Shown here: positions 3,520 through 56,074 of the stretch, one piece after another
Layout: every line of letters starts with the position of its first letter
How positions within the stretch are numbered: position 1 is the stretch's first letter
NCBI RefSeq assembly: GCF_963921235.1
Contig: NC_086097.1
Coordinates: 110,362,001-110,426,000 of the forward strand
DNA from: Mobula hypostoma
Taxonomy: Eukaryota
Direction of reading: 5' to 3'
DNA length: 64,000 nt
Position numbers and translations under genes: made by a program
Notes under the pieces: model-generated
Database searches by the model: none
Told to the model about the DNA's origin: nothing
What the model saw: the letters and a program-made list of their open reading frames with translations, nothing else

Positions 3520-5550
3520 GTCACAAGTATCTGCTGTTCTCGTCCTTCTAGATGGTAGTGGTCGTGGGTCTGGAAGGTGCTGCCTTAGGAACTTTGGTGT
3601 GTTGTTGCAGTGCATCTTGTAGATAGTACACACTGTTGCAACTGTTGGTCGTTGGTGGAGGGATTGGATGCTTGTGGAAGGGGTACCAATCAAGTGGTCT
3701 GTCTTGTACTGGATGGTGTCAAGCTTCTTGAATGTTGATGGAGCTGCACTCATCCAGGCGAGTAGCGAGTATTCCAGTAAACTCCTGAACTGAGCCTTGT
3801 AGATGGTGGACAAGCTTTGGGGAGTCAGGAGGTGAGTTACATTCCACAGGATTCCTAGTTCAATTTCCTGTCAAGGGTAACCCCCAGGATGTTGTTAGTA
3901 GGGGATTCAGTGATGGTGATGCCACTGAAGGTCGAGGGGTGATGGTTAGAGCCTCTCTTGTTGGAGATGGTCATTGCCTGGCACCTGCGTGCTTGAATGT
4001 TACTTGCCATTTGTCAGCCCAAGCCCGGATATTCTCCATGTCCTGCTGCATTTGGGTATGACCTGTTTTACTATCTGAGGAGTCACAAATGGTGCAGAAT
4101 GTTGTGCAGTCATCTGCAAACATCCCCACTTCTGATCTTATGACAGAAGGAAGGTCATTGTTGAAGCAGCTGAATGTGGTTGGTCCTAGGACACTTCCCT
4201 GAGGAACTCCTGCAATGATGTCCTGAGGATGAGATGATTGACCTCCAACCACCACAACTACCTTCCTTTGCATCAGGTAGGAATCCAACCAGCAGACGAT
4301 TTTCCCTCTAATTCCCATTGACTCCATTTTAGCCAGGGCATACTTGGTCTAATGCTGCCTTGATGTCGAGGGCTATCACTCTCACCTCACCTCTGGTATT
4401 TAGCTCTTTGGTCCATGTTTGGACCAAGGAGATGATGAGGTCAGGAACTGGTGGCCTTGGCGGAACCCAAACTGGGTACCCGTAAGCAGATTATTGCTGA
4501 GTAGGTGCTACATGATAGCACTGTTGATGACCCTTCCATTACTTTGCTGATGATTTGGAGTATGCTGATAGGGCGGTAATTGGCTGGGTGGACTTGTCCT
4601 GTTTCTTGTGTACAGGACATACCTGTGGCAATTTTCCACATTGCCAGGTAGATGCTGGTGTTGTAGCTATACTGGAACAGCTTGGCTAGTGGGGTGGCAA
4701 GTTCTGGGCCACAAGTCTTCAGGCTATTGCTGGGATTTTGTCAGGGCCCATAGCCTTCACAGTATCCAGAGCTTTCAGCTGTTTCTTGATAGTGCTGGGG
4801 ACTTCTGGAGGAGGCCAAGCTGGATCACTTACTTGCACTTCTGACTGAAGATTGTTGCAAATGCCTCAGCCTTTTCTTTTGCACAGATGTGCTCGGCTCC
4901 TCTATCATTCAGGATGGGGATACTTGTGGAGCCTCCTCCTCCAGTGATTGTCCACCACCACCCACGGCTGGATGTGGCAGGTCTACAGAGGTTAGGACTG
5001 ATCCGTTGGTTGTGGGAGCACTTTGCTCAGTCTATTACTTGCTACTTATGGTGTTTGGCGTGAGAGTAGTCCTGTATTGCGGCTTCACCAGGGTGACATC
5101 TCGTATTGAGATATGCCTGGTATTGTTCTCAGCATGCCCTCCTGCACTCTTCATTGAACCAGGTTGATCCCCTGGCCTGGTGGTGATGTTAGAGTGGTGG
5201 ATATGCCGGGCCATGAGGTTACAGATTGTAGTTGAGTACAATTCTGCTGCTGCTGATGGCCCACAGCACCTCATAGGTGCCCAGTCTTGGGCTGCTGGAT
5301 TTGTTCAATGTCTACCCCATTTAGCACGGTGGTAGTGTCACACACCGCGGTGGAGGGTTTCTTCAATGTGCGGATGGGATTTAGTCTCCACAAATACTGT
5401 GTGGTGTCACTTCTACCAATGCTGTCATGGACAGATGCTTCCACGCAGGCAGGGATGGGGATATCTGGTATGATGATTCGGATGGGGATGAGAACAATGA
5501 GGCGCACCCCCTCAGACATGTAAAAGTTAGGGAGGAGTGCCAGAATGCTG
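3520..5550 (-). mobile_element. Decayed CR1-clade LINE of a second family (RT region + 3' end)
   Basis: ORF fragments NYRPISILQIISKVME, GVPQGSVLGPTTF, MFADDCT, IYKAQFRSLLEY. Confidence 0.85.
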
Positions 5551-5557
5551 ATGAACA

Positions 5558-5769
5558 TGTAGGTTTCTGCAAAAAAATGAGTGAGGCATTTTATGTTTAA
5601 GGAAAACAGGAGCAACTCATTTATTGTAATCCAAACACTGAACACAAAGCATGGTAAAGGTACTTCACATAATTACATCATTACATCAGGTCAGCCTCTG
5701 AAAGTGAACCCCAACTCAATGTCGATGGTTGTGAATTAAGTACCTTTCCACCAATTACATATCCCTACA
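5558..5769 (-). repeat. 3' LTR (212 bp) of the Gypsy element
   Basis: Inverted termini TGTAGG...CCTACA; on the minus strand preceded by a G-rich PPT-like tract (TTGGGGGTCTG) after integrase; AATAAA inside on the minus strand. Confidence 0.75.
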
Positions 5770-7879
5770 CAGACCCCCAAGAATTCACTAAACAGGCATT
5801 GTGAGCCTGTCCAGAGCACAAACAGGGTCCTATGTTCCACGGGTAAAGGAACAGCAGGTGATTCTAGCTCATCCAGAGGTGTGTTAACGCGCTTACGGTC
5901 ATGTTGTGACGGCAGGGTCATTGTAGCAGAATACTCCAAATCTCGATGGGCTGGTTTAAGGCAATCTACAGAAACACATTCAGGTTTACCCTTCTTTTCT
6001 CACTGTTCCAGAAAGCGGAACAGGCTATCATAAGGGGGCCTAAGAAGGTGTTGGTGTGCATCATGGCAGACAAAAACAAACGAGGTGGAATGTAGGTCAA
6101 CAGGGACCCAAGGGTGCTGTACACCATGATGGGAGATAGGAATAGGTGCAAAGGAATTTAATTTACTGGAACGCTGCTGAGAGGCCCACCAGACAGTCGT
6201 TGAATCAGGAATAACATCACCTGCCACTTGTAAGGTATACCAAATCTGTCACAGATGACTGCAAGTCCTCTTTTGGAGCTGTTCTGATCCCCAGCAGGAC
6301 CCATAGGAGATGATCTGGCCAACACTCATCCATAAGAGGAAGCCCTCAGAGCAGCCTTTAAGGAGGCTAAAACCGTTTGCATAGGTCATTGGATTGTGGG
6401 TGATACACCGTGGTGTGATGGTGCATCATGCTGAGGCTCTGGGCCATCACAGCCCAGAGGTTTGATATGAATTGGGGACTGCGGTCAGAAAGATTATCAG
6501 TTGGGGTGCCAAGCCAAGCAACCCAGCTGCTGATGAACACCCAAGCCACTGTGATGATAGAGCGACCTGGTGGTACAATCCACCATTGTAAGGAGATACG
6601 TGAAACCACAGGAGGGGGTGAGAAGGACTAGCAGGGCCCACATTAACATGGTCAAACCATTGCTCAGTGACCTCAAAAGGTGCTAACAGCACCTGAACAT
6701 GACAGTTAACTTTTGCCCGCTAGCACTCCACACCAGCTGCTCTCCCATCATGCACTTCCTTACTATGGCCGTGCCACACAAACTTCAGTGTGAGGCCTTC
6801 CGGCCCCGATGCAAGAGGCCACGTATGGAGTACGCCTCTAGTTTGCAGTCACTATGGGTCGAGGGCAACCTGTTGAGACGTCACACAGGAGAGGAAGCTC
6901 AGCTTTCTTGAACTTAATGTCAGCCAACCACAGGCCCGTGACTGCTGTTTAGTATGCCTGGACCTTTGGGTCAGTAACTTGGTTGGCTGCCATGTTGGCA
7001 TAGTCAACCCCTATGTGTACGGTCTCAATGGCTGGCCGTGAGAGGCAATCAGCCACGGCACTATTTTTCCCCTTGATATTATGTTGTATATCAGTTCTGA
7101 ACTCTGATGCGTAAGCCAGGCGGAGTTGCTGCCGTGCAAACCAAGGGTCTGATATTTTGGCCATCGCGTGCACGAGGGGTTTGTGGTCAACGAGCACTGT
7201 GAAATGGTGACCCTCTAGATAGAGACCGAGAAGCTCACGGTCAAACATGCTGTACTTCCTTTTGGGGGAACAGAGCTCCTGACCGAAGAAGGTGAGTGGC
7301 TGCCACATGCTTCCAACCAATTGTCATGCACAGCACCAAAGGCTTCATCTGAAGCATCAGTAGTAGTGGCTATGGGTTAGTTGGGGAGAGGGTGTGCCAG
7401 TAGGGTCACGTTGGAAAGAGCTCATTTAGTGTCATCAAATGCTCTGGTCATGTCCACTGACCAGTCAAGTACTTGATTAGTGGTATTAACTTTAAGTGCA
7501 CTATACAGGGGGAGCATAAGCTCAGTAGCTCACAGAATTGCACAGTCATAGAAATTCACCATATATAAAAACAGTAACTTTTTAATAGTGCAGGATGGTA
7601 AGAAATCCATAATAACCAATACTTTTGATGGAAGGGGTTTGCACCTTCTGCAGAGATGTGCTGTCCAAGGAAGTCAATGGCTGCCAAGCCAGACTGGCAT
7701 TTAGCAGGATTAATAATCAACCCGTGTAGGCTTAAGTGCTTGAAAAGTGTGCAGAGATGAGATACGTGTTCAGATTTGGATGCACTGGCAAGAAGTATGT
7801 CATCCAGGTAAACAAGAAGAAAATCTTAAGTCTTTTAATACAGAGTCCATCTGCCATTGGAAAGTCTGTGCTGCATTTT

Positions 7880-8532
7880 AGATTTTAGATTATGAGGACA
7901 CTCAGTCCTCGTTTATTGTCATTTAGAAATGCATGCATGCATTAAGAAATGATACAATGTTCCTCCAGAGTGACATCACAAAAAGAGCAGGACAAACCAA
8001 AGACCAACACTAACAAGACCACATAATTATAACATATAGTTACAGCAGTGCAAAGCAATACGATAATTTGATAAAGAGCAGACCATGGGAACGGTTTAAA
8101 AAAAAGTCTCAAAGTTCCGATCGACTCCCGATAGTCCCCGATAACAGGCGGCAGAAGGGAGAAACTCTCTCTGCCATAACCCTTCAGGAACTGACAACTG
8201 TCGATGCGTTGGAAGCACTGACCACAGCGTCTGAGTCTGTCCAAAAACTTCGAGCCTCCAACCAGCCCTTCAACACCGAGCACCATCTCTGCCAAGCGCC
8301 TCGACCCCGTCCCAGCCACCGAGCAACAAGCAAAGCCGAGGATTCAGGGCCTTCCCCTCCGGAGATTCTGGATCACACAGTAACAGCAGCAGCAAAAAAG
8401 GTATTTCAGAAGTTTCTCCAGATGTTCCTCCGGCCTCTCACGTCTGTCTCTACCAAATCAGGATTGTGCATGGCACCCTACTTGACAGATTACAGATATC
8501 ATTCACTGCGTCGCGCCGCCATCTTATCCTCC
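7880..8532 (-). mobile_element. Non-coding Rex1-tailed short element inserted in the Gypsy RT
   Basis: 5' GGAGGATAAGATGGCGGC; 3' AATAAA, GAGGAC/GTCCTC hairpin and (ATCTAAA)n tail; flanked by CATTT; splits PFGL|KNAAQTFQ; second copy at 40190-40815. Confidence 0.85.
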
Positions 8533-9582
8533 ATTTTTCAGTCCAAATGGCAAACACAGAAACTCAAGGAGGCCAAACAGGGTTATCACAGCTGTTTTGG
8601 GAATGTCCTCTAAGCACACAGGCACCTAATGGTTGCCCCTAACTAGACTGACTTTGGAAAAAATTAACTTTCCATTTAAACGTGACAAAAAGTCTTTGAT
8701 CAGTGGTAACAGGTAACAATCGTGGGTGGTGACCTTGTTAAGGCATTAGTATTTGCCATTTGGTTGGCAACCACCATTGGACTTAAAAACCATATAGAGA
8801 GGCAAAGCCTAGAGGCCATTCAACCACCGTAAAATGCCAAGTCTTTCAATGTTGGTAAGCACAACCTTCACGGTTGCCATCTTTTCTGGGTCCAGTCTAC
8901 GTGCGCGGGCATGGATTGATGAGTCAGTTGTGGAAATGTGATGCTTGGTGAGGTCTGGGAATTTGCCCAGCAGTCTAGTAACTCACATGCATATGCTTGA
9001 CAGAGTCGTTGTGGGGAACTTACTGGGGGAGCAGGGTAACAACCCAAAGTCCTTGACATCCACAAGACGGCACTTCTTAAGATCAACTAACACTCTTGGG
9101 CACACAGGAAATCTGCACTGAGCTGAGGTCTGGCCACTTTAGCCAGGATGAAGTCCCATGTGTAATGTCACCCACTGAAAGAGAGATTCAACCGTTGTGT
9201 CCCCTAGTCTGGATCTTACTGCCGTTGGTGGTCTCCAGCAAGGTTTCACCACTCTTTGTCTTCTCATCAATAGACGATGCTGGCAGTACACTCACCTGAG
9301 CACCCGTGTCACACAGGAAGCATCGCCCTGAAAGGGTGTCCATAATGAACAGTAGACGACCCTGCCAGCTGAAACCCACAGTGTTCACAGACCTCTGATG
9401 TCTCAATGAACTGGTACTGTCGAAGCTGCAAGGCGGTCAGCGCTTCCTAGCATTCGTACCAAAGCGAGAGTGGTAAAAACACAGGCCTGGCGTTGTCTGT
9501 TTTGCAGCTGCAGGTGTCCTTTTGTTGGAGTCCTTGAATATGCCCTATCCCCCAGCGTTAAAGTAGCTCACTATATATATGA

Positions 9583-9785
9583 AAACAACAGGAATTCTGC
9601 AGATGCTGGAAATTCAAGCAACATACATCAAAGTTGCTGGTGAACGCAGCAGGCCAAGCAGCATCTATAGGAAGAGGCGCAGTCGACGTTTCAGGCCGAG
9701 ACCGGTCTCGGCCTGAAACGTCGACTGCGCCCCTTCCTATAGATGCTGCTTGGCCTGCTGCGTTCACCAACAACTTTGATGTATG
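9583..9785. mobile_element. Miniature fold-back Penelope-like (PLE) terminal element
   Basis: 82-bp arms 9622-9703/9704-9785, no spacer, 2 mismatches; 39-bp extra tail on the left; 15-bp TSD TCACTATATATATGA (9568-9582, 9786-9800). Confidence 0.93.
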
Positions 9786-10412
9786 TCACTATATATATGA
9801 TGTGCTTTTGTGGGGATTCTCTGAAGAGGAGGTTTCTGAAGCCCTTAATATTTTGATCACATGCAATCGAGTGGATAGGAAATTAACTCCAATAAAATAA
9901 AAGGCCCAGCTACAACTGTTCATTTTCTACGATTCCAATGGACTAAGGGCAACAGGATAATTCCGGAGAAGGTCAGAAATAAGGTCCTAGGTATAGCATG
10001 CCCTATGACAAAATAAGGCCTTTGGGGATAGCAGCAGCATCACATACCCCACTTGACTGTGATCCTTCAATCTTTAAACCTTGTGACCAGAAAGACATTG
10101 AGTTGTGTATGGGGCCCTGAGCAACAATGAGTTTTTGAGGCTGCAAAGGAGGCGGCCTCTGCGGCCTCGTCCCTGTCCTCATCCAGAGGTTCTCCTCCTG
10201 GAACTGCAAGTTTCTGTTAAAGATGATATGGCTGTCTGGAGCCTCTGACAGAAGTATGGAGGAAGGAATATTCCTCTGGCTTTTTTGGTCCGAAAGCTTC
10301 CTGATCCTACCGCCAGATACACTGCATTTGAGGAACAGCTTCTTGCCTGTTACTGAGCTTTAGAAAAGACTGAAACACACTTGTCTCCCTTCAGCCTGAT
10401 CTTCCTATTATG

Positions 10413-11251
10413 GCAACGCACAGAAAATGCTGGAGGAACTCAGCAGGCCAGGCAGTATCTATGGAAAAAAGTATAGTTGATGTTTCGGGCCGAAACCCTT
10501 CATCGGGACTGGGAGAAAAGATGAGTTAGAGTCAGAAAGTGGGAGGAGAAAAGGAAGAACCACAAGGTGGTGGATGAAACTGGGAGGGAGGAGGGGTGAA
10601 GAAAGAGAGCTGGAAAGTTGATTGTTGAAAGAGATACAAAGCTGGAGAAGGTTGAAAGAGATACAAAGCTGGAGAAGGTTGAAAGAGATACAAAGCTGGA
10701 GAAGGTTGAAAGAGATACAAAGCTGGAGAAGGGGGTATTGGATAGAAGAGAGCAGAAGGCTATGAAAACAAGGGAAGGGGGAGGAGCCCCAGAGGGAAGT
10801 GATAGGCAGGTAGGGAGATAAAGTGGGAGAGGGAAATGGGATTGGGGAATGTGAGGGGGCATTCCCGGAAGTTCGAGAAATCAATGTTCATGCCATCAGG
10901 ATGGAGGCTACCCAGATGGAATATAAGGTGTTGCTCCTCTGACCTGAGTGTGGCCTCATCACGGCAGTGGAGAAGACAATAGATTGGTATGGGAATGGGA
11001 AGTGGAATTAAAATAGCTGGCCTGGGAGATCTCGCTTTTTCTGGTGGACAGAGCATAGGTGCTCGATGAAGCAGCCTCTCACTCTACGTCGAGTCTCACC
11101 GATATACAAAAGGCCTCACCAGGAGTACTGGACAACAGGCTCACAGGAGATGTGTCGCCTCACCTAGAAGGACTGTTTGGGGTCCTGAATGGTAGTGAGG
11201 CGGTAGGTGAGGACAAGAGGAACCATACGTGCACGATATGGAAGAGATGCA
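10413..11251 (-). mobile_element. Older PLE 3' fragment (GIY-YIG C-terminus, 3'UTR, degenerate hammerhead)
   Basis: EQHLIFHLGSLHPDGMNIDFSNFR; homologous to 31017-31784; interrupts the ERV at LPIM|WVL. Confidence 0.9.
10624..10731. repeat. Tandem repeat, 4 x 27 bp GTTGAAAGAGATACAAAGCTGGAGAAG
   Basis: Four identical head-to-tail units inside the PLE 3'UTR. Confidence 0.95.
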
Positions 11252-11378
11252 ATATGGGGTGGGTACTCTGACACACTCACCCATAAGCTAGGGCATGCAC
11301 AATGAAGTTCAATCATCGACTGCAAGTGGTATATTTCTGAAGAGGCATCAAACGGACCGGACGGAAATGGTAAAATAC

Positions 11379-11591
11379 ACGAATGAGAAAATCTGCAGAT
11401 GCTGGAAATCCAAAGCAACACACACAGAATGCTGGAGGAACTCAGAAGGTCAGGCAGCATCTATGGAAAGGAATAAACAGTCGACGTGTCGGGCTGAGAC
11501 CCTTCTACGGGACCTTAGAAGGGTTTCCTTCCCGAAGAAGGGTCTCGGCCCTGGCTTGCTGAATTCCTCCAGCATTCTGTATATGTTGCTT
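11379..11591. mobile_element. Older miniature fold-back PLE terminal element
   Basis: Inverted PLE ends (CAACACACACAGAATGCTGGAGGAACTCAG / CTGAATTCCTCCAGCATTCTGTATATGTTG); 11-bp TSD TGGTAAAATAC (11368-11378, 11592-11602). Confidence 0.85.
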
Positions 11592-11904
11592 TGGTAAAAT
11601 ACTTGAACTGGTTGCTGGGTCCCCTCAGGCTATGTCACTGAAGCTTGAAGTTACTCTGGCCTGCTGTGTGGGGAGTTCCCTTTCATCTGCTCAACAGCAG
11701 CATAGGTCAGTGATATGGCAGAACGGTCGGCATTGTGGGAAGGGTGCTACCTTTAACCTTCTCACCCAACACGCTCTGAGGAGGAAAGGCCTGAGGTGTT
11801 GAGTCAATATGCAGAGCTTGTAGCAGTGCAGACTGTTATTATGCATGAAACAGGTGAAGATCATATTATATTGATACCTGGGCTGTTGCTAACGGACTTG
11901 CTGT

Positions 11905-12040
11905 CTACAAAGAAGAGAAAATCTGCAGATGCTGGAAATGCAAGCACACACACAAAATGCTGGAGGAACTCAACAGGTCAGGCAGCATCAATAGAAAAAA
12001 ATACAGTCGACATTTTGGGCTGAAACCCTTTAGCAGGACT
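11905..12040 (-). mobile_element. Short PLE terminal fragment
   Basis: Same PLE end sequence, stopping at the hammerhead remnant; imperfect TSD GACTTGCTG/GACTTGTTG within the ERV RNase H. Confidence 0.8.
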
Positions 12041-12299
12041 GACTTGTTGGCGAGGTAGAGCCAGTAGTCTTATACTGTTATGGGGTGTCTCTTTTGGGAA
12101 GCGGAGTTGCAAAAGGACATTTAGGTCTGATCATCGCATGTTACCATTACAGTTTACTGTGTCGACACCCATTTGAGAGATGATTTGCCGATGATAAGAT
12201 TTAACAACATTGCTGACAAATTCACTTGTGTTGACAAGGTGACATCAAGCCCCCAGTCTCAAATAACGTTATTGCCACTTGGTCAGTGGGCCCATGATG

Positions 12300-13137
12300 T
12301 GGTGAAGTTAAGATGGTGATAAACGGCAAATCCTTTGCTTGCATCTTCAAAAACAGCTCTTCTTCTATCTTTGATATCTCTCTTTTTTTTCCTTTTCAGA
12401 GTATTGAGGGGGTTCTCTTGAAGACTTTGACCTGGAGTTACACTTTGACTTTGGTTCTTTGAAGGAATGGGACCCGCTCTCAGGGCCTCACGACCGGCTG
12501 CTTTTTGATATCCCAAGGACGCGGCCTGGAAGACTAGCACGCCTTCAGGGTGCTGGATTTCATAGCTCTGGGGAAGGGCTGTTTCTAGGCCGGTGCCGCT
12601 GACTGAGGCGTCGTGGGAGAACGCAGAACATCGGGAGCAGCGGGTTAGCTGCCGGGGGTTGTGTGTCCGGAGAGCTGTGCCTTTTTGGTGCCAACTCTCC
12701 CTCCGGGTGCAGAGCTCAGAGAAAGTGACGCATCAGACTTTCAATATCATAAATCAGGGAGTTGTTTGATGTCTTTCCCTCTCACTGTGAAACGGGGGCA
12801 TCGCTTTTTCCCTTATTAAGGAGAGAGCGAACCTGTGGTATGTCGAATTATTGGGTAAATATGTAGTTTTTGGGATACTGCAAGTCTGTGTCTTTCTTGA
12901 TGCTTTGCTGCACACTTGTGCTCGGTGGAGGGTGCTGATGCTTCTTTGCTGGTGGGCAGTCGGCGGGGTCATCGTCTTGCTGCTTGCGTGTTGGAGGGGG
13001 AGTTGGGAGGGGGGTTTTGGGGCTGTAACGTTTTAACTGTCTTTCATTCTTTGGGGCATTCCTGTTTTTCATGGATGCCTGTGAAGAAAAAGAATTTCAG
13101 GATGTGTATTGTATACATTTTTCTGACATTAAATGAA
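12300..13137 (+). mobile_element. Non-coding LINE-tailed element with AAGATGG head, inserted in the ERV integrase HHCC
   Basis: Starts AAGATGGTG; ends in a Rex-like tail (aagaatttcaggatgtgtattgtatacat..attaaatgaa); flanks CCATGA/CCACGA rejoin QWAH|ESSGH. Confidence 0.7.
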
Positions 13138-13928
13138 TCCACGAGTCTTCTGGTCATCTGGGGGTACAGGCTACCATGGAGTGGTCACGGCAGCGGGGAT
13201 TATTCCTTCCCACTGATAACACTCGTACAGCGGTTGTAGGGAGTTGTGTGCTATGTTTAGAAATTAAGAACTGACAGTGTTTAAAATGACCCGTGGTTGC
13301 TATTCGTCATTGGCATGCCCCGCTCAGATTTGGCAATTAGATTACGTTGGTCCCCTTCCTTTACTTAAGTGCCTCCTCAGTTATTCTGGTCTTTTGTTGG
13401 GAATCCCTACTGTTAAAACTAATCAGGATGGCACCCTTCAGGATTAGAACATCTTGCTTCTGCATAAGGCAAACCTTTTGAAATTCAATCCGATGATGGT
13501 TCAGGGTACAAGAGTGGGGTGTCTCTAATGGTGTATGGTGGGTCTTCCATGTCCCCTATTATCCTTAGGCCAGCGGTTTGATTGATCGAATGAGTGGCCT
13601 ATTAAATCAGCAAATTCATCTTCTTACTACTGCCGATCCCTTGTCTGGATGCTTACCTGTTCTTCCCCATGCTTTGTATAATTTGAACAACTGCCCTTTG
13701 TGTGTGTTGCTTTGAAAGGAGGTACTCTTTTCTGTTAATGACAGGACAATCTTTTCCTTTTGTTCCTGATGGCACAACTGAAAGTGCTGATAGAGCCGAC
13801 TCAGTTCTGCAAGGGAGGGAGGGGGGTAAAGTGTTTGTGACATACCCGTCTTCCCCTCCAATGCAGGGTGAGATTATTGCCGACGGGCAGGGAAGTACAC
13901 CCTGGTGATGGTACAGGATAGAGCCATT

Positions 13929-14005
13929 GTGTGTGTGTGTGTGTGTCTGTTTGTCTGTCTGTGTGTGTTTGTGTGTGTGTGTGTGTGTCTGTCTGTCTGT
14001 CTGTC
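13929..14005. repeat. (GT)n/(GTCT)n microsatellite
   Basis: Read directly. Confidence 0.95.
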
Positions 14006-14317
14006 TAAGGGTTTTGCAATATTCCTGCGAAACGACTGTCATATTGATTGCAATCTGACTCTTGCATCCCCGAGTACAATGTGATGTTTTTAAACCTATC
14101 TCAAACTGTTTTAATTGTCAACAAGATGCTGTTAACGTCCCTTAAGGATGAAAATATATACTTCAATGTGAATGTCGAGGTTAATAATAATTGGATCTGT
14201 ATAATTTTTCATGATAGTATTCGTTTTCAGTCATCCAAGTGATATGCATTCTTCATTTTAAGCAGAAGGAGGAGTAATATATGTCTTTGGCTTGCTCAGC
14301 CATTTAAGAGGGTGAAA

Positions 14318-14816
14318 TGTGTTGTGGTGTATTAAATTTTGTAAAAATATTAGATGAAAGTCTGAACATTTCCAAGTATCTCTTTGTGAGCTCACAGCAT
14401 GTAAGGTGTCTGTACAAGTTAAACACTAGGTTTGTTAAATGTTAGCTAATAGTGGCTGGGTTCTTTCTTGGCCTCAAGGCACTTGTGGCATGGGAACAAA
14501 AGACCAAATAGTTTGACTGTCTCTGCATGTCTCACTAGGCATCTGGAATGATTCCCTATTTATTGAGGCACCTTTCACTCCGTGCCTAGGACAGACCCAC
14601 GGTGATTTCACAAATCGGAATTCAGAGTTCCCCCAACAACAGTGACAACCAAGTCCCCCCAGTGACAGCAACAAATGAGTGGACACTATAAATCGTGAGC
14701 CCTGAAATCTTGGTTATTTACTATGTCATATTTAATGTGATTTATTTGTGCTTTCTATTTTGTGATAATAAATTAGGCTTAAGTTACTTAGTTGTGCTTG
14801 TATGCTTATTACCACA
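14318..14816 (+). repeat. Putative 3' LTR of the class III ERV
   Basis: Purine tract AAGAGGGTGAAA immediately before TGTG; ends ACCACA; TATAAA near 14687 and AATAAA at 14767. Confidence 0.65.
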
Positions 14817-20283: not shown

Positions 20284-23200
20284 ACAAGACCATAAGACAT
20301 AGGAGCAGAACTAGGCCATTCAGCCCATTGAGTCTGCTCCACCATTCAATTATGGCTGATTGATCCTGGATCCCTCACAACCGGCACTAGTCAGGGAGAA
20401 GAGTTTTAAAAAGGAATGTTTCGTGGGGCTCAGCACATTAGCAGTAGACCATTTGATTCGCAGAGAGAGAGAGCTTCACACAGGTCAGGGGGAAGAGTTT
20501 AAAAGAGCGTTTTGCAGTGCTCAGCGCATTAGCGGCAGACGAATCAATTCGCAATTCTTTAGCAGGAGCAAATAAAAGTAAAGCAGGGTCAAAGCAGAGC
20601 GGCCATTGTGTGAGTGGACCAGTGTAGGAGTGGGAACTTGAGGCTTTGGCTCAAGAGGCTTTGGCGAGGAGGCGCACGTAAGGCTTTTGTAATGGTTGAA
20701 GATAAAAATTACTAAATTACAGCTAATTAAATAAAGTAGGGATGATGCAGGATCAGGTGATGTGCTGTAGCTGCATGATGTGGGAGCTGGTGGACCCCAT
20801 TGTGGTCCCTGGTGACCACATCTGCAGCAAGTGCTGGCTGCTCAAGGAACACAGGCTCAAAGTTGATCGCCTGGAATCTGAGCTTCAAACACTGCAGCAC
20901 ATCAGGGAGGGGGAGAGTTATCTAGATTCTCTTTTACAGGAGGTAGTCACAGACTAGCTGCCTCAAATTCTCTGTGGTCAGGGGCAAGAGGGTGTGACTG
21001 CGAATGAGGTGAGTAGTGGGATCCAAGAGCCAGTGCTGGAGGAGCCTCAGCCCTTGAGCTTGTCCAACAGGTCTGAGATTCTTGCTCCCTGTGTGGCTGA
21101 GAGTGGGGGGTGTAGGAAGGATGGCACCATGGTTCAGGGAGCCATTCAAGAGGGGGGAAGAGAAGAGAAATGTAGTGGTAATTGGGGATGGGGATGATAT
21201 AGTCAGGGGAATAGACTGAGTTCTTTGTCATGAGGATAGAGCATCCCGAAGGTTGTGTTGCTTGCCTGGTGCCTGGGTTCAGGACATCTTATCCGACCTG
21301 CAGAGGAATTTGCAGTGGGAGGGGAAAGATCCTGTTGTCGTGGTCTCTGCGGGTACAAAAGACTTGGGTAGAATGAGGAAAGAGGTTCTGCTGAGGGAAT
21401 TTGAGCAGCTAGGGACTAAATTAAAAAGCAGAACCAAAAAGGCAGTAATCTCTGGATTACTAATGGAACCACGTGCAAATTGGCATTGGGTCAAGAAGAT
21501 TAGAGAGCTAAATGTGTGGCTCAAGAATTGGTATGGGAGAGGTGGGTTTGAATTCATGGGAAACTGGCACCAGTACTGGCGAAGGAGGGAGCTGTACCAA
21601 TGGGACGGGCTCCACCTGAACTCTGATGGGACCTGGATCCTAGCGAGTCGGAAAACTCGGGCTGAGGATAGGGCTTTAAACTAAATAGTGCGGGGGGGGG
21701 CAGGGGTTCAACAGATTGGAGAAGTAAAAGTGTGGATACAGATAAAGCAAAAGATAAAAAAGAGAAAAGTAAGAGTGGAGCGAAGAAAGGTCAAGTGCAA
21801 AAGAGTAAAAGATTTTAAAAGTACAATGAGTGGAAGGGCACTTTATTTGAATGCCCATAGTATTCGAAACAAAGTCAGTGAACTTGTGGCACACATCAGT
21901 ACAAGGGGCTATGATTTAGTGGCCATCACCTAGATGTAGTTGCAAGGTGGACAGGATTGGGAATTAAATATCCAAGGATATCAGGTAAAATGGAAGGATA
22001 GACAGGAAGGTAAGGGAGGTGGGGTAGCACTCTTAATTAAAGATGAGATCAGGGTTATAGTGAGAGACGATATAAGATCTAAGGAGCAGAATGTTGAATC
22101 CATTTGGGTAGAGATTAGGAATAGTAAAGGGGAAAAAAATCACTGGTGGGAGTTGTCTATCGGCCACCGAATAATAACATTACAGTGGCACAGGCAATAA
22201 ACAGAGGGATATCTGAGGCATGTAAAAATGGAACAGCAGTTATCTTGGGGGATGTTAACTTACACATAGATTAGGTGAATCAAATTGGTCGAGGCAATCT
22301 TGAGGAGGACTTCACAGAATGCATCCATGATGGTTTTCTTGAACAACATGTTACTGAACCTACAAAGGAACGTGCCATCTTAAATGTGGTCCTGTGCAAT
22401 GAGACAGGTGAAATTAGTGATCTTGTAGTTAGGGATCCTCTTGGAAAGAGTGATCACAGTATGATTGAGTTTCTCATACAAATGGAGGGAGCAATAGTTT
22501 GATCTAAAACCAATGTATTATGCCTAAACAATGGAGATTACAATCGGATGAGGAAGGATTTGGCTCGTATAGACTGGGAACACAGGCTATATGGTGGAAT
22601 GGTTGAGGAACAGTGGAAGGCTTTCAAAGAGATTTTTCACAGTGCTCAACAAAAGTATATTCCAGTTCAAAGCAAGGATGGTAAGGATGGGGAGAGCCAG
22701 CCTTGGATAACTAAGGAAATAAAAGAAGGCACCAAACTAAAAGCTTGTGCGTACAAAGTAGTCAAGAGTAGTAGGAAAATGGACAATTGGGAAAACTTTA
22801 AAAAGCAACAAAGAATCTCTAAGCAAGAAATGAAGAAAGGGAAGCTTGATTATGAAGGACAAGAAAGGGGAGTTAATAGTGGGTAATGAGAAAATAGCAA
22901 AGGCTTTGAATTACTGTTTTGTGTCAGTCTTCGTGGTGGAGGACACATCTAACATGCCAAAGAGAGATGTTATGGATGCAATGGGGGGGGGGGGGGTAAG
23001 GACCTCGATACAATAACTATTACTAAAGAGGTAGTGCTGAGTAAACTTGTGGGCCTGAAGATAGGTAAGTCCCCTGGTCCTGGTGGAATGCATCCCAGGG
23101 TACTGAAAGAAATGGCAGAAGTTATAGTAGAGGCTTTGCTGATAATTTACCAAAATTCTCTAGTCTCTGGGCAGGTCACAGCAGATTGGAAGATGGTAAA

Positions 23201-24905
23201 TGTCACACCACTGTTCAAAAAAGGACTTTGGCAGAAGGCAGGTAACTATAGGTCAGTTTGTTTAACATCTGTAGGTGGCAAAATGCTTGAAGCTATCAAT
23301 AAACAAGAAATAGCAAGGCATTTGGAAAGAAATGGATCCATCAGACAGACGCAGCATGGATTCAGCAAAGGCAGGTCCTGTTTGACAAACTTCCTGGAGT
23401 TCTTTGAGGAAATAATGAACACAGTGGACAGAGGGGAACAGATGGACATTACTTACTTGGATTTCCAGAAGGTGTTTGAAAAGGTGCCACATAAAAGACT
23501 TATCCATAAGATAAGGATGCATAGAGTTGGGGGTGATGTATTAGCATGGATAGAGGTTTGGTTAACTAATAGAAAGCATAGAATTGGGATACATGGGTGC
23601 TACTCTGGTTGGCAATCAATAATGAGCCGTGTGTCACAGGGGGTGGTGCTGGGCCCACAACTGTTCATTATAAACATTAACAATGTAGAAGAGGTATACA
23701 TAGGCTAGGTGAGTGGGCAAGGGTCTGGCAGATGGAGTACAATGTTAGTAAATGCAAGGTCATCCACCTTGGAAGGAAAAATTAAAAAGCAGGTTATTTA
23801 ACAGGTAAAGAATTGCAGTGCAGAAGGACTTGGGAGTGCTTGTGCATGAATCACCGAAGGCTGGTTTGCAGGGGCAGCAGGCTATCAAGAAGGCAAATGG
23901 AATGTTGGCCTTCATTGCCAGAGGGATTGAATTTAAGAGCAGGGAGGTTATGCTGCAACTGTACAAGGTACTAGAGAGGCTGCACCTGGAGTACTGCAGG
24001 CAGTTCTGGTCTCCTTACTTGAAAAATGATATACTGGATTTGGAGGTGGTGCAGAGGAGGTTCGCCAAGTTGATTCCAGAGATGAGGGGGTTAGACTAAC
24101 TGGAGAGATTGAGTCACCTGGGACTGTATTGACTGGAATTCAGAAGAACTAGAGGAGATCTTATAGAAACATATAAAATTCTGAAAGGGATAGATAAGGT
24201 ATGACAGAGAAGTTGCTTCCACTGGTAGGTGAGACTAGAACTAGGAGACATAGCCTCAAGTTTCCGGGGAGTAGATTTAGGACAGAGATGAGGAGGAACT
24301 GCTTTTCCTAGAGAGTGGTGAATCTGTGGAATTCTCTGTCCAATGAAGCAGTGGAGGCTACCTCAGTAAATATATTTAAAACAAGGTTGGGTAGATTTTT
24401 CTATGGGGAAGTTGGGGAATTTAGGGTTATGGGGAAAGGGCATATAGGTAGAAATGAGTCCATGGGCAGACCAGCCATGATTTTATTGGAAGGCGGAGCA
24501 GGCTTAATGGGCTTCATGGCCGACTCCTGCTCCTATTTCTTATGTTCTAACCCCATACACTTGCCTTCTCACCATACCTTTTGATGCCCTGACTGATCAG
24601 GAAACGATCAACTTCTGCCTTAAATATACTCATGGACTTGACCTCCACTGCTGTCTGTGGCAGAGCATTCCACAGGTTCACTAAAAAATTTGTCTTTACA
24701 TCTGTTCTAAAAGGTCACCCCCTCAATCTTGAGGCTCTGCCCTCAAAGTTCTGGGTACCTCCACCATAGGAATCATCCTCTCCTCATCCACCGTATCTAG
24801 TCCTTTCAACATTCGGTAGGTTTTAATGAGATCCCCTCTTCCTCCCCCACCCCCCGCATTCTTCTAAATTCCAGTGAGTACTGGTCCAAAGTTGCCAAAT
24901 GCTTA
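20284..24905 (-). mobile_element. Older CR1 3' fragment split by the full-length CR1 (pieces 20284-20382 and 24549-24905)
   Basis: Antisense CR1 3'UTR ...ccctcacaacc resumes as aaccccatacacttgccttctc. Confidence 0.75.
20383..24548 (+). mobile_element. Near full-length decayed CR1 LINE (5'UTR, ORF1 with Zn finger/coiled coil/SGNH esterase, ORF2 APE+RT)
   Basis: ORF1 CCSC..ICSKC and LPGA..AGTKD..DGLHLN; ORF2 YLNAHSIRNK, KGGGVALL, LGKSDH, KSPGPGGMHPRVLKE, QHGFSKGRSCLTN, YLDFQK; tail CCTATTTCTTATGTTCT; 4-bp TSD AACC; many stops and frameshifts. Confidence 0.93.
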
Positions 24906-27933: not shown

Positions 27934-30868
27934 TCAGATCATTGATCAGTACCAGCTTTGCACTGTGAGACAAGCAGAGCAGCCTTTGTTGGTGCCGACC
28001 AGTGTTAGAGTGGAGAAGATTTGACTCAGCAGGCTTTGGCGACAACAGGCTTGGGTGAGCTAAGTTTCTGATAAGTTTCTTCTTCTTCCTAATTTATCTG
28101 TTAGTGCAGTTAAAAAAAGGGCTCCCGGGGCTGTGTTGTATTCTTTGTGTGAGATGTGGAAATCTGGGAGACCTCCAGCCTCCTGGATAACCACATCTAC
28201 ACCAGGTGCAGTTCAATAACCTTCAGCTCGAACAGGAGACAAAGGTGGTGATAGATAGGAGCTACACGGAGGTAGTCACCCCTAAGTTACAGGAAGCAGG
28301 TACCTGGGTGACTATCAGGAGGGGAAAAGGAAATGGGCAGCCAGTGCAGAGTATCCCTGTGGCTGTTCCCCTCAGTAATAAGTATACTGCTTTGGATAGT
28401 GTTATGGCAGACAGTGTACCTGGGGAGGCACAGTGACTAGGTTTCTGGCACTGAGTCTGCCACTGTGGCTCAGAAGGGAAGAGGGGAGAGAAGGCTGCAG
28501 GAGAGCTAGGGGATTCCATAGTTAGAGGAGAAGATATGAGATTCAGTAGACGTTAAAGAGATATGTGGATGATGTGCTGCTTCCCGGGTGCCGGTGCCAG
28601 GATCAAAGATGTCTCAGATCAGGTCCATGGCATCCTAAAGGAAGAACTTGAGCAGCAAGAAGTCTTGGTACATATTGGCACCAATAACATAGGTAGGAAA
28701 AGGGTGGAGGTCTTGAAGAGAGAATTTAAGGAATTAGATAGAAAGCTAAAAAGCAGGACCTCCAGGGTATTCATCTAGGATGATTTGGCTGATGAATGCA
28801 TGGCTGAGGAACAAAGCGCAGGAGCAGGGCTTCAGACTTTTGGGATCTCTTCTGGGGAATGTATGACCTGTACAAAAGGGATGGGTCACACCTGAACCTG
28901 AGGGGGACCAATATCCTTATGGGCAGGTTTGCTAGAGTTGTGTGCAATGAGCCTGTCAGGAAGGACAAGCATTTGCTAGGGCAAATTTGCAGTCAATGGG
29001 ATGAGTTGCAGTGTAATATGGAGATGAAATCAGAAAGGGCAACAAATATTTGAATATACACAGTTGACGGAATAAGGTAGATGATTTGTAGAGCATTTAG
29101 AGACTGTTAGGTATAATATTGTGGACATTTCTGAGTCATGGCAGTTAGAGATTGGTAGGTATGACTTTATGGGCAGCACTGAATCATGGCTAAAAGAAAA
29201 TCATAGCTGGGACCGAAACATCCAAGGATACACATTGTATCAAAAGGACAGGCAGGTAGGCAGAGGGGTGGGGTGGCTCTGTTGGTAATGAAATCAAATC
29301 TTTACTAAGAGGTGACATAAGATTGGAAGATGTAGAATGCTTGCGGGTAGAGTTCAGAAACTGTAAGGATAAAATAACCCTGATGGGAATTATATACAGG
29401 CCTCCTAACAGGAGCAAGGATATGGGGTATGAATTACAAAGGGAGAGAGAAAACACATGTCAAAAGGGCAATGTTACAATAGATATGCAAGATTTCAATG
29501 TACAGGTATGTTGGGAAAATCAGGATGGTTTTGAATCACAAGAGAAGTTCTAAGAGATGGCTTTTTAGATTAGCTTGTAGTTGAGCCCACTAGAGGAAAG
29601 GCTATGCTGGACTGGGTATTGTGTAATGAACTGGATTTGATCAGGGATCTTACGGTAAAGGAACCTTTATGAGTCAGTGATCATAATATGATAGTCTTCA
29701 CCCTGCAATTTAAAAGTCAAATGTATCAGTATTACGGTGGAGTAAAAGGGACTTATAGAAGCATGAGAGAAGAGCTGGCCAAAGTTGATTAGAAGGAGAT
29801 ATTAGCAGGGATAACAGTAGAACAGGAAGAAATCAGAATAGCGCAGGATAGATATATCCAAAAGATGAAGAAGTATTCTAAGGATGGATGATGCAACCAT
29901 GGCTGACAAGGGAAGTCAAAGACAGTATAAAAGCAAAGAGAAGGCATATAGTAGAGCAAAAAATACTGGGAAGTTAGAGGATTAGGAAACTTTTAAGAAC
30001 TAACAAAGCTACTAAAAAGCCATATGGTGAGAAAAAAATAAAATATGTAGGTCTCAAACAACAGGAATTCTGCAGATGCTGGAAATTCAAGCAACATACA
30101 TCAAAGTTGCTGGTGAACGCAGCAGGCCAAGCAGCATCTATAGGAAGAGGCGCAGTCGACGTTTCAGGCCGAGACCCTTCGTCAAGACTAACTGAAGGAA
30201 GAGTGAGTAAGGGATTTGAAAGCTGGAGGGGGAGGGGGAGATGCAAAATGATAGGAGAAGACAGGAGGGGGAGGGATAGAGCCGAGAGCTGGACAGGTGA
30301 TAGGCAAAAGGGGATACGAGAGGATCATGGGACAAGAGGTCCGGGAAGAAAGACGGGGGGGGGGGTGACCCAGAGGATGGGCAAGAGGTATATTAGGAGG
30401 GACAGAGGGAGAAAAAGGAGAGTGAGAGAAAGAATGTGTGCATAAAAATGAGTAACAGACGGGGTACGAGGGGGAGGTAGGGCCTTAGCCGAAGTTAGAG
30501 AAGTCGATGTTCATGCCATCAGGTTGGAGGCTACCCAGACGGAATATAAGGTGTTGTTCCTCCAACCTGAGTGTGGCTTCATCTTTACAGTAGAGGAGGC
30601 CGTGGATAGACATGTCAGAATGGGAATGGGATGTGGAATTAAAATGTGTGGCCACTGGGAGATCCTGCTTTCTCTGGCGGACAGAGCGTAGATGTTCAGC
30701 AAAGCGGTCTCCCAGTCTGCGTCGGGTCTCACCAATATATAAAAGGCCACATCGGGAGCACCGGACGCAGTATATCACCCCAGTCGACTCACAGGTGAAG
30801 TGATGCCTCACCTGGAAGGACTGTTTGGGGCCCTGAATGGTGGTAAGGGAGGAAGTGTAAGGGCATGT

Positions 30869-31400
30869 CCCACCACTAAGCACATCTTTCCCTCCCCCCC
30901 CCTCTGCATTCCGCAGGGATCGCTCCCTACACAACTCCCTTGTCCATTCGTCCCCCCCATCTCTCTCCACTGATCTCCCTCCTGGCACTTATCTGTGTAA
31001 GCGGAACAAGTGCTACACATGCCCTTACACTTCCTCCCTTACCACCATTCAGGGCCCCAAACAGTCCTTCCAGGTGAGGCATCACTTCACCTGTGAGTCA
31101 ACTGGGGTGATATACTGCGTCCGGTGCTCCCGATGTGGCCTTTTATATATTGGTGAGACCCGACGCAGACTGGGAGACCGCTTTGCTGAACATCTACGCT
31201 CTGTCCGCCAGAGAAAGCAGGATCTCCCAGTGGCCACACATTTTAATTCCACATCCCATTCCCATTCTGACATGTCTATCCACGGCCTCCTCTACTGTAA
31301 AGATGAAGCCACACTCAGGTTGGAGGAACAACACCTTATATTCCGTCTGGGTAGCCTCCAACCTGATGGCATGAACATCGACTTCTCTAACTTCGGCTAA
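30869..31400 (+). pseudogene. PLE ORF C-terminus: Cys-rich linker + GIY-YIG endonuclease (5'-truncated; mirror copy 30485-30868 on minus)
   Basis: GTYLCKRNKCYTC..FTCESTGVIYCVRCSRCGLLYIGETRRRLGDRFAEH..VATHF..LEEQHLIFRLGSLQPDGMN. Confidence 0.92.
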
Positions 31401-31696
31401 GGCCCCACCTCCCCCTCGTACCCCATCTGTTACTCATTTTTATGCACACATTCTTTCTCTCACTCTCCTTTTTCTCCCTCTGTCCCTCTGAATATACCTC
31501 TTGCCCATCCTCTGGGTCACCCCCCCCCGCCGTCTTTCTTCCCGGACCTCCTGTCCCATGACCCTCTCGTATCCCCTTTTGTCTATCACCTGTCCAGCTC
31601 TCGGCTCTATCCCTCCCCCTCCTGTCTTCTCCTATCATTTTGCATCTCCCCCTCCCCCTCCAACTTTCAAATCCCTTACTCACTCTTCCTTCAGTT

Positions 31697-31732
31697 AGTC
31701 CTGACGAAGGGTCTCGGCCTGAAACGTCGACT
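31697..31732 (+). ncRNA. Minimal type I hammerhead ribozyme motif in the PLE 3' region
   Basis: AGTC-CTGACGA-A-GGGT(CTCG)GCCT-GAAAC-GTC-GACT; helix I AGUC/GACU; loopless palindromic helix III (ACGT); predicted cleavage after C31728. Confidence 0.85.
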
Positions 31733-34395
31733 GCGCCTCTTCCTATAGATGCTGCTTGGCCTGCTGCGTTCACCAGCAACTTTGAAATATGTAGGTCTGC
31801 TAGCCAATAATATCAAAGAGGATACCAAAACATTTTTCAGATATATAAGGAATAAAAGAGAGGGGAGAGTAGATATTGGACCACTGGGAAATGACGCTGA
31901 AGAGATAGTATTGGGGAGGACAAGAAACTGGCAGAAAAACTAAATAAATATTTTACATCCATCTTCACTGTGGAAGAAACTAGCAGTATGCTGGAGGTTT
32001 GAGAGTGTCATAGGGCAAAAGTGAGTGCATTTGCTATTAATAGGGAGAAGGGGCCTTGGGAAACTGAAAGGTCTGAAGGTAGAGAAGTCACCTGGACCAG
32101 ATGGACTACACCCCAGGGTTCTGAAGGAGGTAGCTGAAGAGATTGTGGAGGCATTACTAGTGATCTTTCAAAAATCACTACATTCTGGCATGGTTCTGGA
32201 GGGCTGGAAAATTGCAAATGTCCCTCCACTCCAGCAAGGGCTGGAGGAAAAAGAAAGGAAATTATTGGACAGTTAGCCTGGCTTCAGCGGTTGGGATGAT
32301 GTTGGAGCTGACTGTCAAGGGTGAGGTCTCAGGGTGCTAAGACACATGATAAATTAGGACAAAGTTCAGCGTGGTTAACTTAAGGGAAAACCTCGTCTGA
32401 CAAAATTGTTGGAATTTTTAAGGAAATCACAGACAGGATAGACAAAAGGAGAATCTGTGGATTTCAGAAGGCCCTTGACAAGATGTTACACATGAGGCTG
32501 CTAAACAAGATGAGAGCATGATAGAGCATTGGCTGATTGACAGGAGGCAAAGAGTGGGAATAAAGGCAGCCTTTTCTGTTTGGCTGCTGGGGACTAATAG
32601 TGTTCCACAGGTGTCGGTGCCGGACTGCTTTTTATGTTATACATCAATGATTTGGATGAAAGGATTAATAGCATTGTGGCCAAGTTTGCAGACAATATGA
32701 GGCAGGTAGTGTTGAGGAATCAGGGAGGCTGGAGAAGGACATAGGCAGATTAGGAGAATGGGCAAAGAGGTGGCAGATGGAATACAGTGTCGGGAAGTGT
32801 ATGGTCATGCACTTCAGCAAAAGGAACAAGAGCATAGACTGCTTTCTAAACGGGGAGAAAATTCAAAAATCCGAGGTGCAAAAGGACGTGGGAATCCTTG
32901 TGCAAGATTCCCCAAAGGTTAACTTGCTGGTTGAGTCAGAGAAAGGCAAATGCTGTGTTGGCAATTTTTTGAGAGGAATAGAAAATACCCCCTCAACAAC
33001 AGATATATCAATTTAGCAGCTATATTTTCTTTAGTCAGAGAGTAGCTGTGGAATTCTTTGCCACGGGCAGCTGTGGGGGCCAAATCTTTATATATATTTA
33101 AGGCAGAGGTTGATAGATTCTTGATTATTCAGGGCATAAGGAGATATGTTTGAAGGCAGAAATTTAGGGCTGAGAGGAAAATTTAATCAGCCTCGTTGAA
33201 ATGGTGGAGTGGACCCGATGGGCCAAGTGGCCTAATTCTGCTCCTATATCTTAAGGTCTTATAAAAGCAAGGATGTAATGCCAAGGCTTTATTCTCTCTG
33301 GTGAGGCCTTACTTGGAGTGTTGTGAACTGTTCTGGGCCATTTACCTAAGAAACGATGTGCTGACACTGGAGAAGTTCCAGAGGGGGTTTATGAGAATGA
33401 GGAGGATATGATGGCTTTCAGCCTTTACTCAATGGAATTTAGAAGACTGAGGGGGGATCTTATTGAAGCCTATCAAATGTCAAAAGGCCCATAGGGAATG
33501 GATGTGGAGAGAATGTCTTCCTATTGTGGGGGAGTCTCGGACCAGAGGGCACAGCCACAGAATAGAGGGACATTCATTTAGAGTGGCGATGAGAAGGAAT
33601 TTCTTTAGCCTGAGGATGTTGAATCTGCGGAATTCATTGCCACAGACAGCTGTGGAGACCAGGTCATTTGGTGTATTTAAGGCAGAAGTTGATAGGTTCT
33701 TGATTAGTTAGGGCGTGAAGGTTATCGGGAGACACCAGGAGAACGGGGTTGAGAGGGAAAATGGATCAGCCATGATGAAATGGAGGACAGACACAAAGGG
33801 TCAAATGGCTTAATCCTGCTCCTATCTCTTATGGTCTTATGGTCATGTGAAATGGAAGCACTGACTTGAGAGGCCAGGTGGCCTGCTGTTTCATTGCAAC
33901 AAAGGTTTGTGTTTCCGGTTTGGTAAGGCAGAAAGACACAAATCCCCGTCATCTACTTAGAACCAGAAAACTTTGTTTATTAGGACAGAATAGCATGCGT
34001 TAAAACACTTATCTAGTTATGCACAAACTCTTCTCTCTGCAGCATATCTTCAATTCTGCTCGTTACTAGCCCATCTGTGAAGCCCCGCAAAAACCTTTGA
34101 GCCCCTAACTCCTCTACTTTTATGCCCATTCCACTGTTGCAGTAAGTGAACCAGCTGAAACCACTGAACCAGAACCAATCTTCAGTTGTCACCACACTTC
34201 ACAAATCCCACCCCTTGGCACACCTGACTTTCATGTTCCCACAGCTGGATTCTCTCTGACACCATGTTGTATTCCCACTGTACATTGCATTTTCACGGTC
34301 CCTGTCACGTACATTCAATGGCAGACCACAGTGGTGGTGCTGGGCTTGTTGGAGATCAGAGTTTCCCTTGGAGAACTTTTTTTGGATTGTAGGGG

Positions 34396-54728: not shown

Positions 54729-55921
54729 ATAGAAACATAGAAAATAGGTGCAGGAGTAGGCCATTTGGCCCTTCGAGCCTGCACCGCCATTCAGTATGAT
54801 CATGGCTGATCATCCAACTCAGAACCCTGTACCAGCCTTCCCTCCATACCCCCTGATCCCCGTAGCCACAAGGGCCATACCTAATTCTCTCTTAAATATA
54901 GCTAATGAACTGGCCTCAACTGTTTCCTGTGGCAGAGAATTCCACAGATTCACCACTCTCTGTGTGAAGAAGTTTTTCCTAATCTCGGTCCTAAAAGGCT
55001 TCCCCTTTATCCTCAAACTGTGACCCCTCGTTCTGGACTTCCCCAACATCGGGAACAATCTTCCTGCATCTAGCCTGTCAATCCCTTTAGGATTTTATAC
55101 GTTTCAATCAGATCCCCCCTCAATCTTCTAAATTCCAACGAGTATAAGTCTAGTTCATCCAGTCTTTCATCATGTGAAAGTCCTGCCATCCCAGGAATCA
55201 ATCTGGTGAACCTTCTTTGTACTCCCTCTATGGCAAGGATGTCTTTCCTCAGATTAGGGGACCAAAACTACACACAATACTCCAGGTGTGGTCTCACCAA
55301 GGCCTTGTACAACTGCAGTAGTACCTCCCTGCTCCTGTACTCGAATCCTCTTGCTATAAATGCCAGCATACCATTCGCCTTTTTCACCGCCTGCTGTACC
55401 TGCATGCCCACTTTCAATGACTGGTGTATAATGACACCCAGGTCTCGTTGCACCTCCCCTTTTCCTAATCGGCCACTATTCAGATAATAATCTGTTTTCC
55501 TATTTTTGCCACCAAAGTGGATAACTTCACATTTATCCACATTAAATTGCATCTGCCATGAATTTGCCCACTCACCCAACCTATCCAAGTCACCCTGCAT
55601 CCTCTTAGCATCCTCCTCACAGCTAACACTGCCACCCAGCTTCGTGTCATCCGCAAACTTGGAGATGCTGCATTTAATTCCCTCATCCAAGTCATTAATA
55701 TATATTGTAAACAACTGGGGTCCGAGCACTGAGCCTTGCGGTACCCCACTAGTCACTGCCTGCCATTCTGAAAAGGTCCCGTTTATTCCCACTCTTTGCT
55801 TCCTGTCTGCCAACCAATTCTCTATCCACATCAATACCTTACCCCCAATACCGTGTGCTTTAAGTTTGCACACTAATCTCCTGTGTGGGACCTTGTCAAA
55901 AGCCTTTTGAAAATCCAAATG
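54729..55921 (-). mobile_element. Young 5'-truncated CR1 LINE
   Basis: LDFQKAFDKVPHRRL..GVPQGSVLGPQLF..KFADDTKL; same family as 2452-3261. Confidence 0.95.
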
Positions 55922-56074
55922 TGATGAGAGAGGGACCTGAAACATCTGAAGACAATTCACAGAGAGGAGTGAGTACTGCACAGACAGTACTTCAGGATCC
56001 AGCCTTGGTCCCTGGAGCTGGGAGACAGGAGCACTAACTGCTGTGCTGTCAAGACACTGTCTCAAGTTGGCTGA

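Follow-up and report, generated by a model that had tools for sequence, protein, structure and literature searches.

A decayed ERV-L-like (class III) provirus, broken by five insertions, in the genome of Mobula hypostoma

RESULTS

A broken pol gene lies in a window of the Mobula hypostoma genome

The DNA analyzed here is a 64,000-nucleotide (nt) window from the forward strand of contig NC_086097.1 of Mobula hypostoma (RefSeq assembly GCF_963921235.1, positions 110,362,001 to 110,426,000). Coordinates are positions in this window, and parts of the element are on the plus strand unless stated otherwise. A retroviral pol gene lies at 9786 to 13920, split by five insertions, and is followed by a polypurine tract (PPT)-like sequence and a 499-bp element resembling a long terminal repeat (LTR) (Table 1). 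We conclude that this element is very probably an inactive, heavily broken fossil provirus of the ERV-L-like group of class III endogenous retroviruses (ERVs), which corresponds to clade Huo.

Collinear plus-strand pieces of pol were mapped by tblastn with intact relatives. They run in the order reverse transcriptase (RT), tether, RNase H, and integrase, covering the RT catalytic region (approximately 9787 to 9860), the RT thumb (9858 to 10196), the tether (10198 to 10400 and 11267 to 11383), RNase H (11736 to 11910 and 12095 to 12300), integrase (13140 to 13700), and the integrase C-terminal domain (13816 to 13905). This mapping bears out the claim of a first-pass annotation, made from the letters of the DNA, that a hidden pol becomes collinear once five insertions are removed. 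Pfam matches on the intact relatives agree with the order, and approximately 705 codons remain from the RT catalytic region to the end of integrase, compared, in length only, with 739 amino acids (aa) in a stingray relative. When the RT-thumb piece alone was searched against 1.84 billion proteins, 104 matched at an E value of ≤0.001, the best at 6.7e-21, far beyond chance. The tether piece matched four intact pols at 58 to 64% identity, one of them from the killifish Nothobranchius.

Other searches returned little. Pfam on the window gave three weak hits, all below the cutoff (RT_RNaseH, E value of 0.014 to 0.016; Integrase_H2C2, E value of 0.0026). With the RT-thumb piece, a word-indexed search gave no matches and a PDB search gave a single chance hit. 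IMG/VR scans found no relative with the ERV-L-like pol P0001 and none with the tether piece, which had one 10-residue match (L001) lacking an RT open reading frame (ORF). An Atlas search yielded only generic RT/RNase H clusters.

The RT catalytic site aligns with the YIDD motif of the relatives and is mutated in the present copy. The mutated motif is present in both target-site copies of insertion 1, and therefore the RT was dead before insertion 1 arrived. This copy cannot encode a working enzyme. Six-frame translation found the pol motifs quoted in the first-pass annotation scattered across three plus-strand frames; WGPEQ and WQxDYxGPLP are letter-perfect, whereas the others are degraded by stops, frameshifts, and substitutions.

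Table 1. Parts of the provirus and the elements that interrupt or adjoin it
Feature	Position	Strand	Basis or remark
Probable gag remnant of the same provirus (DGDIW, acidic run, and AxP motif of ERV-L-like Gag)	5454..5510	+	tblastn
Truncated Gypsy-type LTR retrotransposon between gag remnant and pol, separate from the ERV	5590..9520	-	Ends approximate
Short RT stretch before insertion 1	9523..9582	+	Weak, by position; continuous with duplicated target site
Insertion 1: palindromic Penelope-like fragment, young, within RT catalytic region	9583..9785		15-bp target-site duplication
pol: RT palm (mutated catalytic motif), thumb, and start of tether; stops and frameshifts	9786..10413	+	tblastn, protein search, reference scoring
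Insertion 2: longer fragment of the same Penelope-like family, with 27-bp tandem array	10414..11250		Right end approximate
pol: end of tether	11251..11378	+	41 to 55% identity to relatives
Insertion 3: same Penelope-like repeat family, partly palindromic	11379..11591		11-bp target-site duplication
pol: RNase H, part one	11592..11911	+	tblastn, reference scoring
Insertion 4: same Penelope-like repeat family	11912..12040		87% identity to insertion 3; ends approximate
pol: RNase H, part two, and start of integrase zinc finger	12041..12297	+	tblastn
Insertion 5: unclassified genomic repeat unrelated to insertions 1 to 4	12298..13138		Ends approximate
pol: integrase zinc finger, core, and C-terminal domain; no room for dUTPase	13139..13920	+	Core-to-C-terminal spacing
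TG-rich microsatellite in the gap between pol and LTR	13928..14004		Repeat scan
Polypurine-tract-like sequence	14306..14317	+	Purine-rich, directly 5' of TG
Probable 3' LTR, TG...CA, 499 bp	14318..14816	+	Start could be 14323

The pol gene is followed by a polypurine tract-like sequence and a probable LTR

A PPT-like tract and an LTR-like element were found where the first-pass annotation had described a PPT followed by an LTR of roughly 500 bp. The LTR-like element contains TATAAA at 14687 and AATAAA at 14767, with inverted TGTGGT/ACCACA sequences near its ends. Because neither a second LTR copy nor a 5' LTR was found within the window, the element is called an LTR from its location and its anatomy. 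In four sequencing runs, read depth was higher over the LTR bins than over integrase, which hints weakly at solo LTRs, given that the flank is also repetitive and that depth is not copy number. No Pfam match to env was found in the approximately 400 nt between the end of pol and the PPT, which leave no room for this gene in this copy. A bacterial promoter scan of the DNA was empty, which is irrelevant here.

The element belongs to the ERV-L-like group

Ten single-frame pieces of the window were scored against 61 references, 34 of them ERV-L-like and 27 outgroups. A search with P0001 matched 354 proteins; the best 120 comprised pols of teleosts, bichir, lungfish, amphibians, turtle, and birds together with those of stingray (Hemitrygon), electric ray (Narcine), and white shark (Carcharodon) (RefSeq ORFs). 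One reference cluster, with members named from Mus, is of the mouse ERV-L type. The outgroups were drawn from IMG/VR, and from their motifs and genome lengths we take them to be Gypsy, class I, foamy, and snakehead-like. For every one of the 10 pieces, the top score was to an ERV-L-like reference. A fairer test uses only the mouse ERV-L-type pol, because the other ERV-L-like references were found from the window; this pol beat every outgroup in 9 of the 10, with a summed score of 916 versus at most 411.

Phylogenetic trees gave the same assignment. In a careful RT-tether tree, both pieces fell inside the ERV-L-like clade, which holds mouse ERV-L, with support of 100/100, and little was resolved within that clade. 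In the integrase tree, three pieces fell inside it (99/98), and one was sister to the stingray pol (95/91). Of the 61 references, the RT tree omitted 17 by choice and 2 that had no anchor, and later trees, including the careful one, omitted 2 more long branches; the integrase tree omitted 11 by choice and 9 for poor coverage. Approximately unbiased (AU) tests used 18 to 24 references. The joint AU test, with 18 references and short searches, entered nine pieces as separate rows held in one clade.

These AU tests bear directly on the alternative that the element is a Gypsy retrotransposon or a gamma/epsilon ERV that merely resembles ERV-L. A Gypsy remnant does adjoin the pol fossil, and among solved structures the relatives score higher to murine leukemia virus (MLV) RT than to foamy RT, with no ERV-L entry among the matches listed. 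However, the RT-thumb piece rejected placement with Gypsy (p-AU of 0.0004), with gamma plus epsilon (1e-5), with foamy (6e-5), and with snakehead-like references (1e-5), and the nine pieces jointly rejected class I at 1e-40. The RT thumb is only 16 to 26% identical to Gypsy, class I, foamy, and snakehead-like RTs, compared with 36 to 52% to 15 of the 16 ERV-L-like ones and 21% to the remaining one, from turtle; in addition, tether and RNase H are both present in pol. This alternative is refuted under the models used and retains next to no probability. Thus, the class III, ERV-L/S-like assignment of the first-pass annotation stands, and the grouping with Gypsy or epsilon/gamma retroviruses that it had named as contrary evidence did not occur.

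The element probably nests within the clade, near a stingray family

Within the ERV-L-like clade, the closest kin of the element is probably a stingray family that shares its build. In the best joint tree the pieces lie beside Hemitrygon, which also has the highest summed score (1091). The first-pass annotation had instead proposed a deep-branching lineage of class III, relevant to the age of these retroviruses, which would place the element as sister to the remaining ERV-L/S-like viruses. Single pieces do not reject a sister-to-all position (p-AU of 0.35 for the RT thumb and of 0.68 for the integrase core, the latter from a poorly optimized quick tree), and the careful RT tree offers little resolution within the clade. 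The joint test, however, rejected this position at 0.029, with a placement in the dUTPase-bearing fish subgroup borderline at 0.048. A clade uniting the white shark and stingray pols with the window piece was rejected (p-AU of 1e-12), which fits host switching, and cartilaginous-fish retroviruses are basal in no clade in the parts of Xu et al. 2018 (PMC6001957) consulted. A deep-branching origin is therefore improbable. About as improbable, or slightly more so, is a recombinant with its RT from the dUTPase-bearing fish/amphibian subgroup and its integrase from the stingray-type subgroup: the RT thumb grouped with P0001 in quick trees (SH-aLRT of 96 to 98) and the integrase core with Hemitrygon, as given above, yet the careful RT tree left the RT thumb unplaced, and neither RT thumb with Hemitrygon (p of 0.39) nor integrase core with P0001 (p of 0.68) was rejected.

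Several points weigh against an ERV-L-like fossil nested beside the stingray family. Both the class III references and the piece boundaries were derived from the window, which biases the comparison toward class III, and the trees held no HERV-S, whale shark ERV, or lokiretrovirus sequence. The joint AU test does not reject MuERV-L as sister (0.156) or a position outside the core group (0.071), and the RT-thumb piece is most identical (52%) to P0001, which bears a dUTPase. It could be that env and dUTPase were lost in this copy only, and the gag remnant, at 19 codons, could belong to another copy.

The reference set also contained P0153 (Logan), a long-branch pol of 989 aa at the edge of the ERV-L-like clade that shifted beside MuERV-L in the joint tree; as a candidate deep lineage, it is stronger than the window element. 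Among the owl pols (P0017 and P0026), one from barn owl groups with amphibian and lungfish members (P0006 to P0012), and the white shark pol groups with killifish at 67% identity. These groupings are hints of cross-class transmission.

The element lacks a dUTPase and is not ERV-L proper

ERV-L elements in the strict sense have a leucine-tRNA primer binding site. They also carry a dUTPase after the integrase core and lack env, whereas ERV-S elements lack dUTPase and have an associated env; the dUTPase and env features are taken from excerpts of PMC8278194, and excerpts of PMC8922424 confirm the clade definitions. In the window, the integrase core and the C-terminal domain lie approximately 47 codons apart, compared with 41 aa in the stingray pol, 149 to 172 aa in seven others, and 169 aa in the mouse ERV-L-type pol. 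The linker is thus too short for a dUTPase, and the element is therefore ERV-L-like but not ERV-L proper. It shares clade, domain order, and absence of env with MuERV-L and HERV-L, to which it is 46 to 50% identical over the RT thumb and tether. Like HERV-S, compared here by description only, it is a class III element without dUTPase; unlike HERV-S, this copy has no env.

The closest match in build is an ERV-L-like gag-pol family of Hemitrygon akajei (RefSeq XP_072898008.1, or P0257, and its cluster), which gave the best summed score and joint placement and shares the Gag DGDIWY motif, the missing dUTPase, and the short integrase linker. Per-segment identity is only 25 to 51%, and the two are therefore different families. 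The Hemitrygon copies are annotated as long gag-pol proteins of 1.5 kaa, whereas the window copy is dead. In the P0023 cluster of H. akajei (RefSeq), which has 13 members, 5 gag-sized ORFs carry the name Fv1-like and another 4 members are gag-pol proteins of 1.5 kaa; this suggests a young ERV-L-like family in stingray with possibly retained gag genes.

Two published systems offer further comparisons. XtERV-S of Xenopus (PMC8278194, in the part consulted) is an ERV-L-related class III pol in a nonmammal that is intact and has an env and a dUTPase-like segment; the Xenopus tropicalis pol P0024 lies near the integrase piece in the tree, and we assume that P0024 is XtERV-S. Rh_ty_ERV3 (whale shark) and No_fu_ERV1 (killifish), both of clade Huo, have Gag starts that by eye resemble those of stingray and white shark; in the label text of S2 Fig of PMC6001957, they are listed, in label order only, beside HERVL, Murine_ERVL, HERV-S, and AviervIII. 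The window family may already be among elements of this type.

Related copies exist, and insertion junctions are shared with other organisms

Among 24 listed sequencing runs, 20, from eight organisms, share words with positions 13140 to 14816, and 6 share half or more. Four runs were compared in detail, using contigs only; counts are minima, and a junction had to be bridged by 31 nt. In all four, several divergent contigs cover the pol positions; therefore, related copies exist. Organism B differs at 55 positions in 2,853 nt over six contigs and bridges the insertion 4 and insertion 5 junctions. Organism D, 6 to 7.5% different, bridges the insertion 5 junction by 32 nt. Organism E, 6 to 9% different, misses the 31-nt requirement at insertion 2 by 2 nt and is suggestive only. 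Insertion junctions are thus shared with at least two other organisms. If the copy in organism D is orthologous, as it appears to be, a difference of 7.5% would correspond to 17 to 170 million years, a tenfold range set by the two rates quoted in the excerpt of Han 2015 (PMC4422223) consulted. The locus could be useful as a dated marker, offering an orthologous nested series of insertions across related species.

Four of the five insertions belong to one probable Penelope-like family

Exact target-site duplications mark two insertions (15 bp at 9568/9786 and 11 bp at 11368/11592), and only weak ones were found for the other three. Insertions 1 to 4 belong to a single repeat family that we take to be Penelope-like. 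A first impression that they were short interspersed nuclear elements (SINEs) was dropped because long copies carry a GIY-YIG domain. The family behind them is seen at 30056 to 31792 as a long inverted pair (512-nt arms, 99% identity) with a GIY-YIG domain and a hammerhead-like core. The left arm of insertion 1 is 100% identical over 121 nt to 30056 to 30176, and the insertion is therefore young; insertion 2 is 76% identical to the GIY-YIG-bearing copy at 30480 to 30848. Rfam on the palindromic insertion 1 gave only microRNA hairpin matches, below threshold. Insertion 5 has no other copy within the window and very high depth in the four runs.

Proposed history and significance

A plausible history can be drawn from this anatomy. 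The ancestor would have copied itself by the retroviral route, with an RT bearing tether and RNase H, plus-strand priming from the PPT, and integrase acting on the TG...CA ends, and its copying was probably intracellular, like that of the env-less mouse ERV-L. After fixation, a Gypsy element may have landed in gag. In the simplest reading, one later deletion took most of gag, pro, and the RT N terminus as well as the 5' end of the Gypsy element. Penelope-like fragments would have inserted repeatedly, also after fixation.

Class III ERVs (clade Huo) occur in all major vertebrate lineages according to the excerpts of PMC6001957 consulted. In those of PMC11089739, clade III, which there includes foamy-like and snakehead-like viruses, is the majority class in six chondrichthyan genomes (2,843 RT loci), and in those of PMC4422223 the elephant shark has snakehead-like and epsilon-like ERVs. 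The ERV-L-like group is already catalogued in cartilaginous fish, and the window element is an ordinary additional member. Since class III is known as the majority ERV class in these fish, one more decayed copy changes nothing about the age of retroviruses. The element draws attention to an ERV-L-like branch without dUTPase in rays; among the stingray members of this branch are Fv1-like gag ORFs. No description of such a ray family was found in listings from a literature collection that covers few subscription journals and excludes Repbase/Dfam. Tentatively, and with the odds somewhat against it, an unnamed elasmobranch branch of the ERV-L-like group may have lost both dUTPase and env, spread in the manner of a retrotransposon, and kept long gag-pol and Fv1-like gag ORFs in stingray; the presence of the locus in at least three species that differ by up to approximately 7% would then give this branch a minimum age of tens of millions of years.

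The upstream region holds a probable gag remnant and a Gypsy-type element

Beyond the first-pass annotation, the analysis found the gag motif, the intervening Gypsy remnant, the Penelope-like family in four of the five insertions, and the shared insertion junctions. The gag remnant matched stingray Gags at tblastn E values of 0.014 to 0.35. Its DGDIW-acidic-AxP pattern, which was defined after the hit was seen, has a single occurrence in the window and none in 60 shuffles, and is shared by 5 of 6 Gag-bearing relatives. The remnant between gag and pol, presumably Gypsy-type from its motifs, gave Pfam matches to RVT_1 (E value of 2.3e-9) and RT_RNaseH_2 (1.7e-6) and lacks its own 5' end. Its RT contains a 677-nt high-copy insertion at 7880 to 8556, which other copies skip in all four runs. 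The repeat content of the window, rich in CR1 and Penelope elements, is like that of ray genomes and, together with the stingray origin of the nearest relative, is consistent with an elasmobranch host, although class III viruses switch hosts.

A second decayed Gypsy-type pol remnant lies at 46826 to 48480 (plus strand). Remnants of long interspersed nuclear elements (LINEs), with an esterase-type ORF1 and CR1-like RT pieces, and of Penelope-like RT lie at 21220 to 21684, 22953 to 23708, and 43962 to 45511 on the plus strand and at 55268 to 56173 on the minus strand; some of these labels are our presumption.

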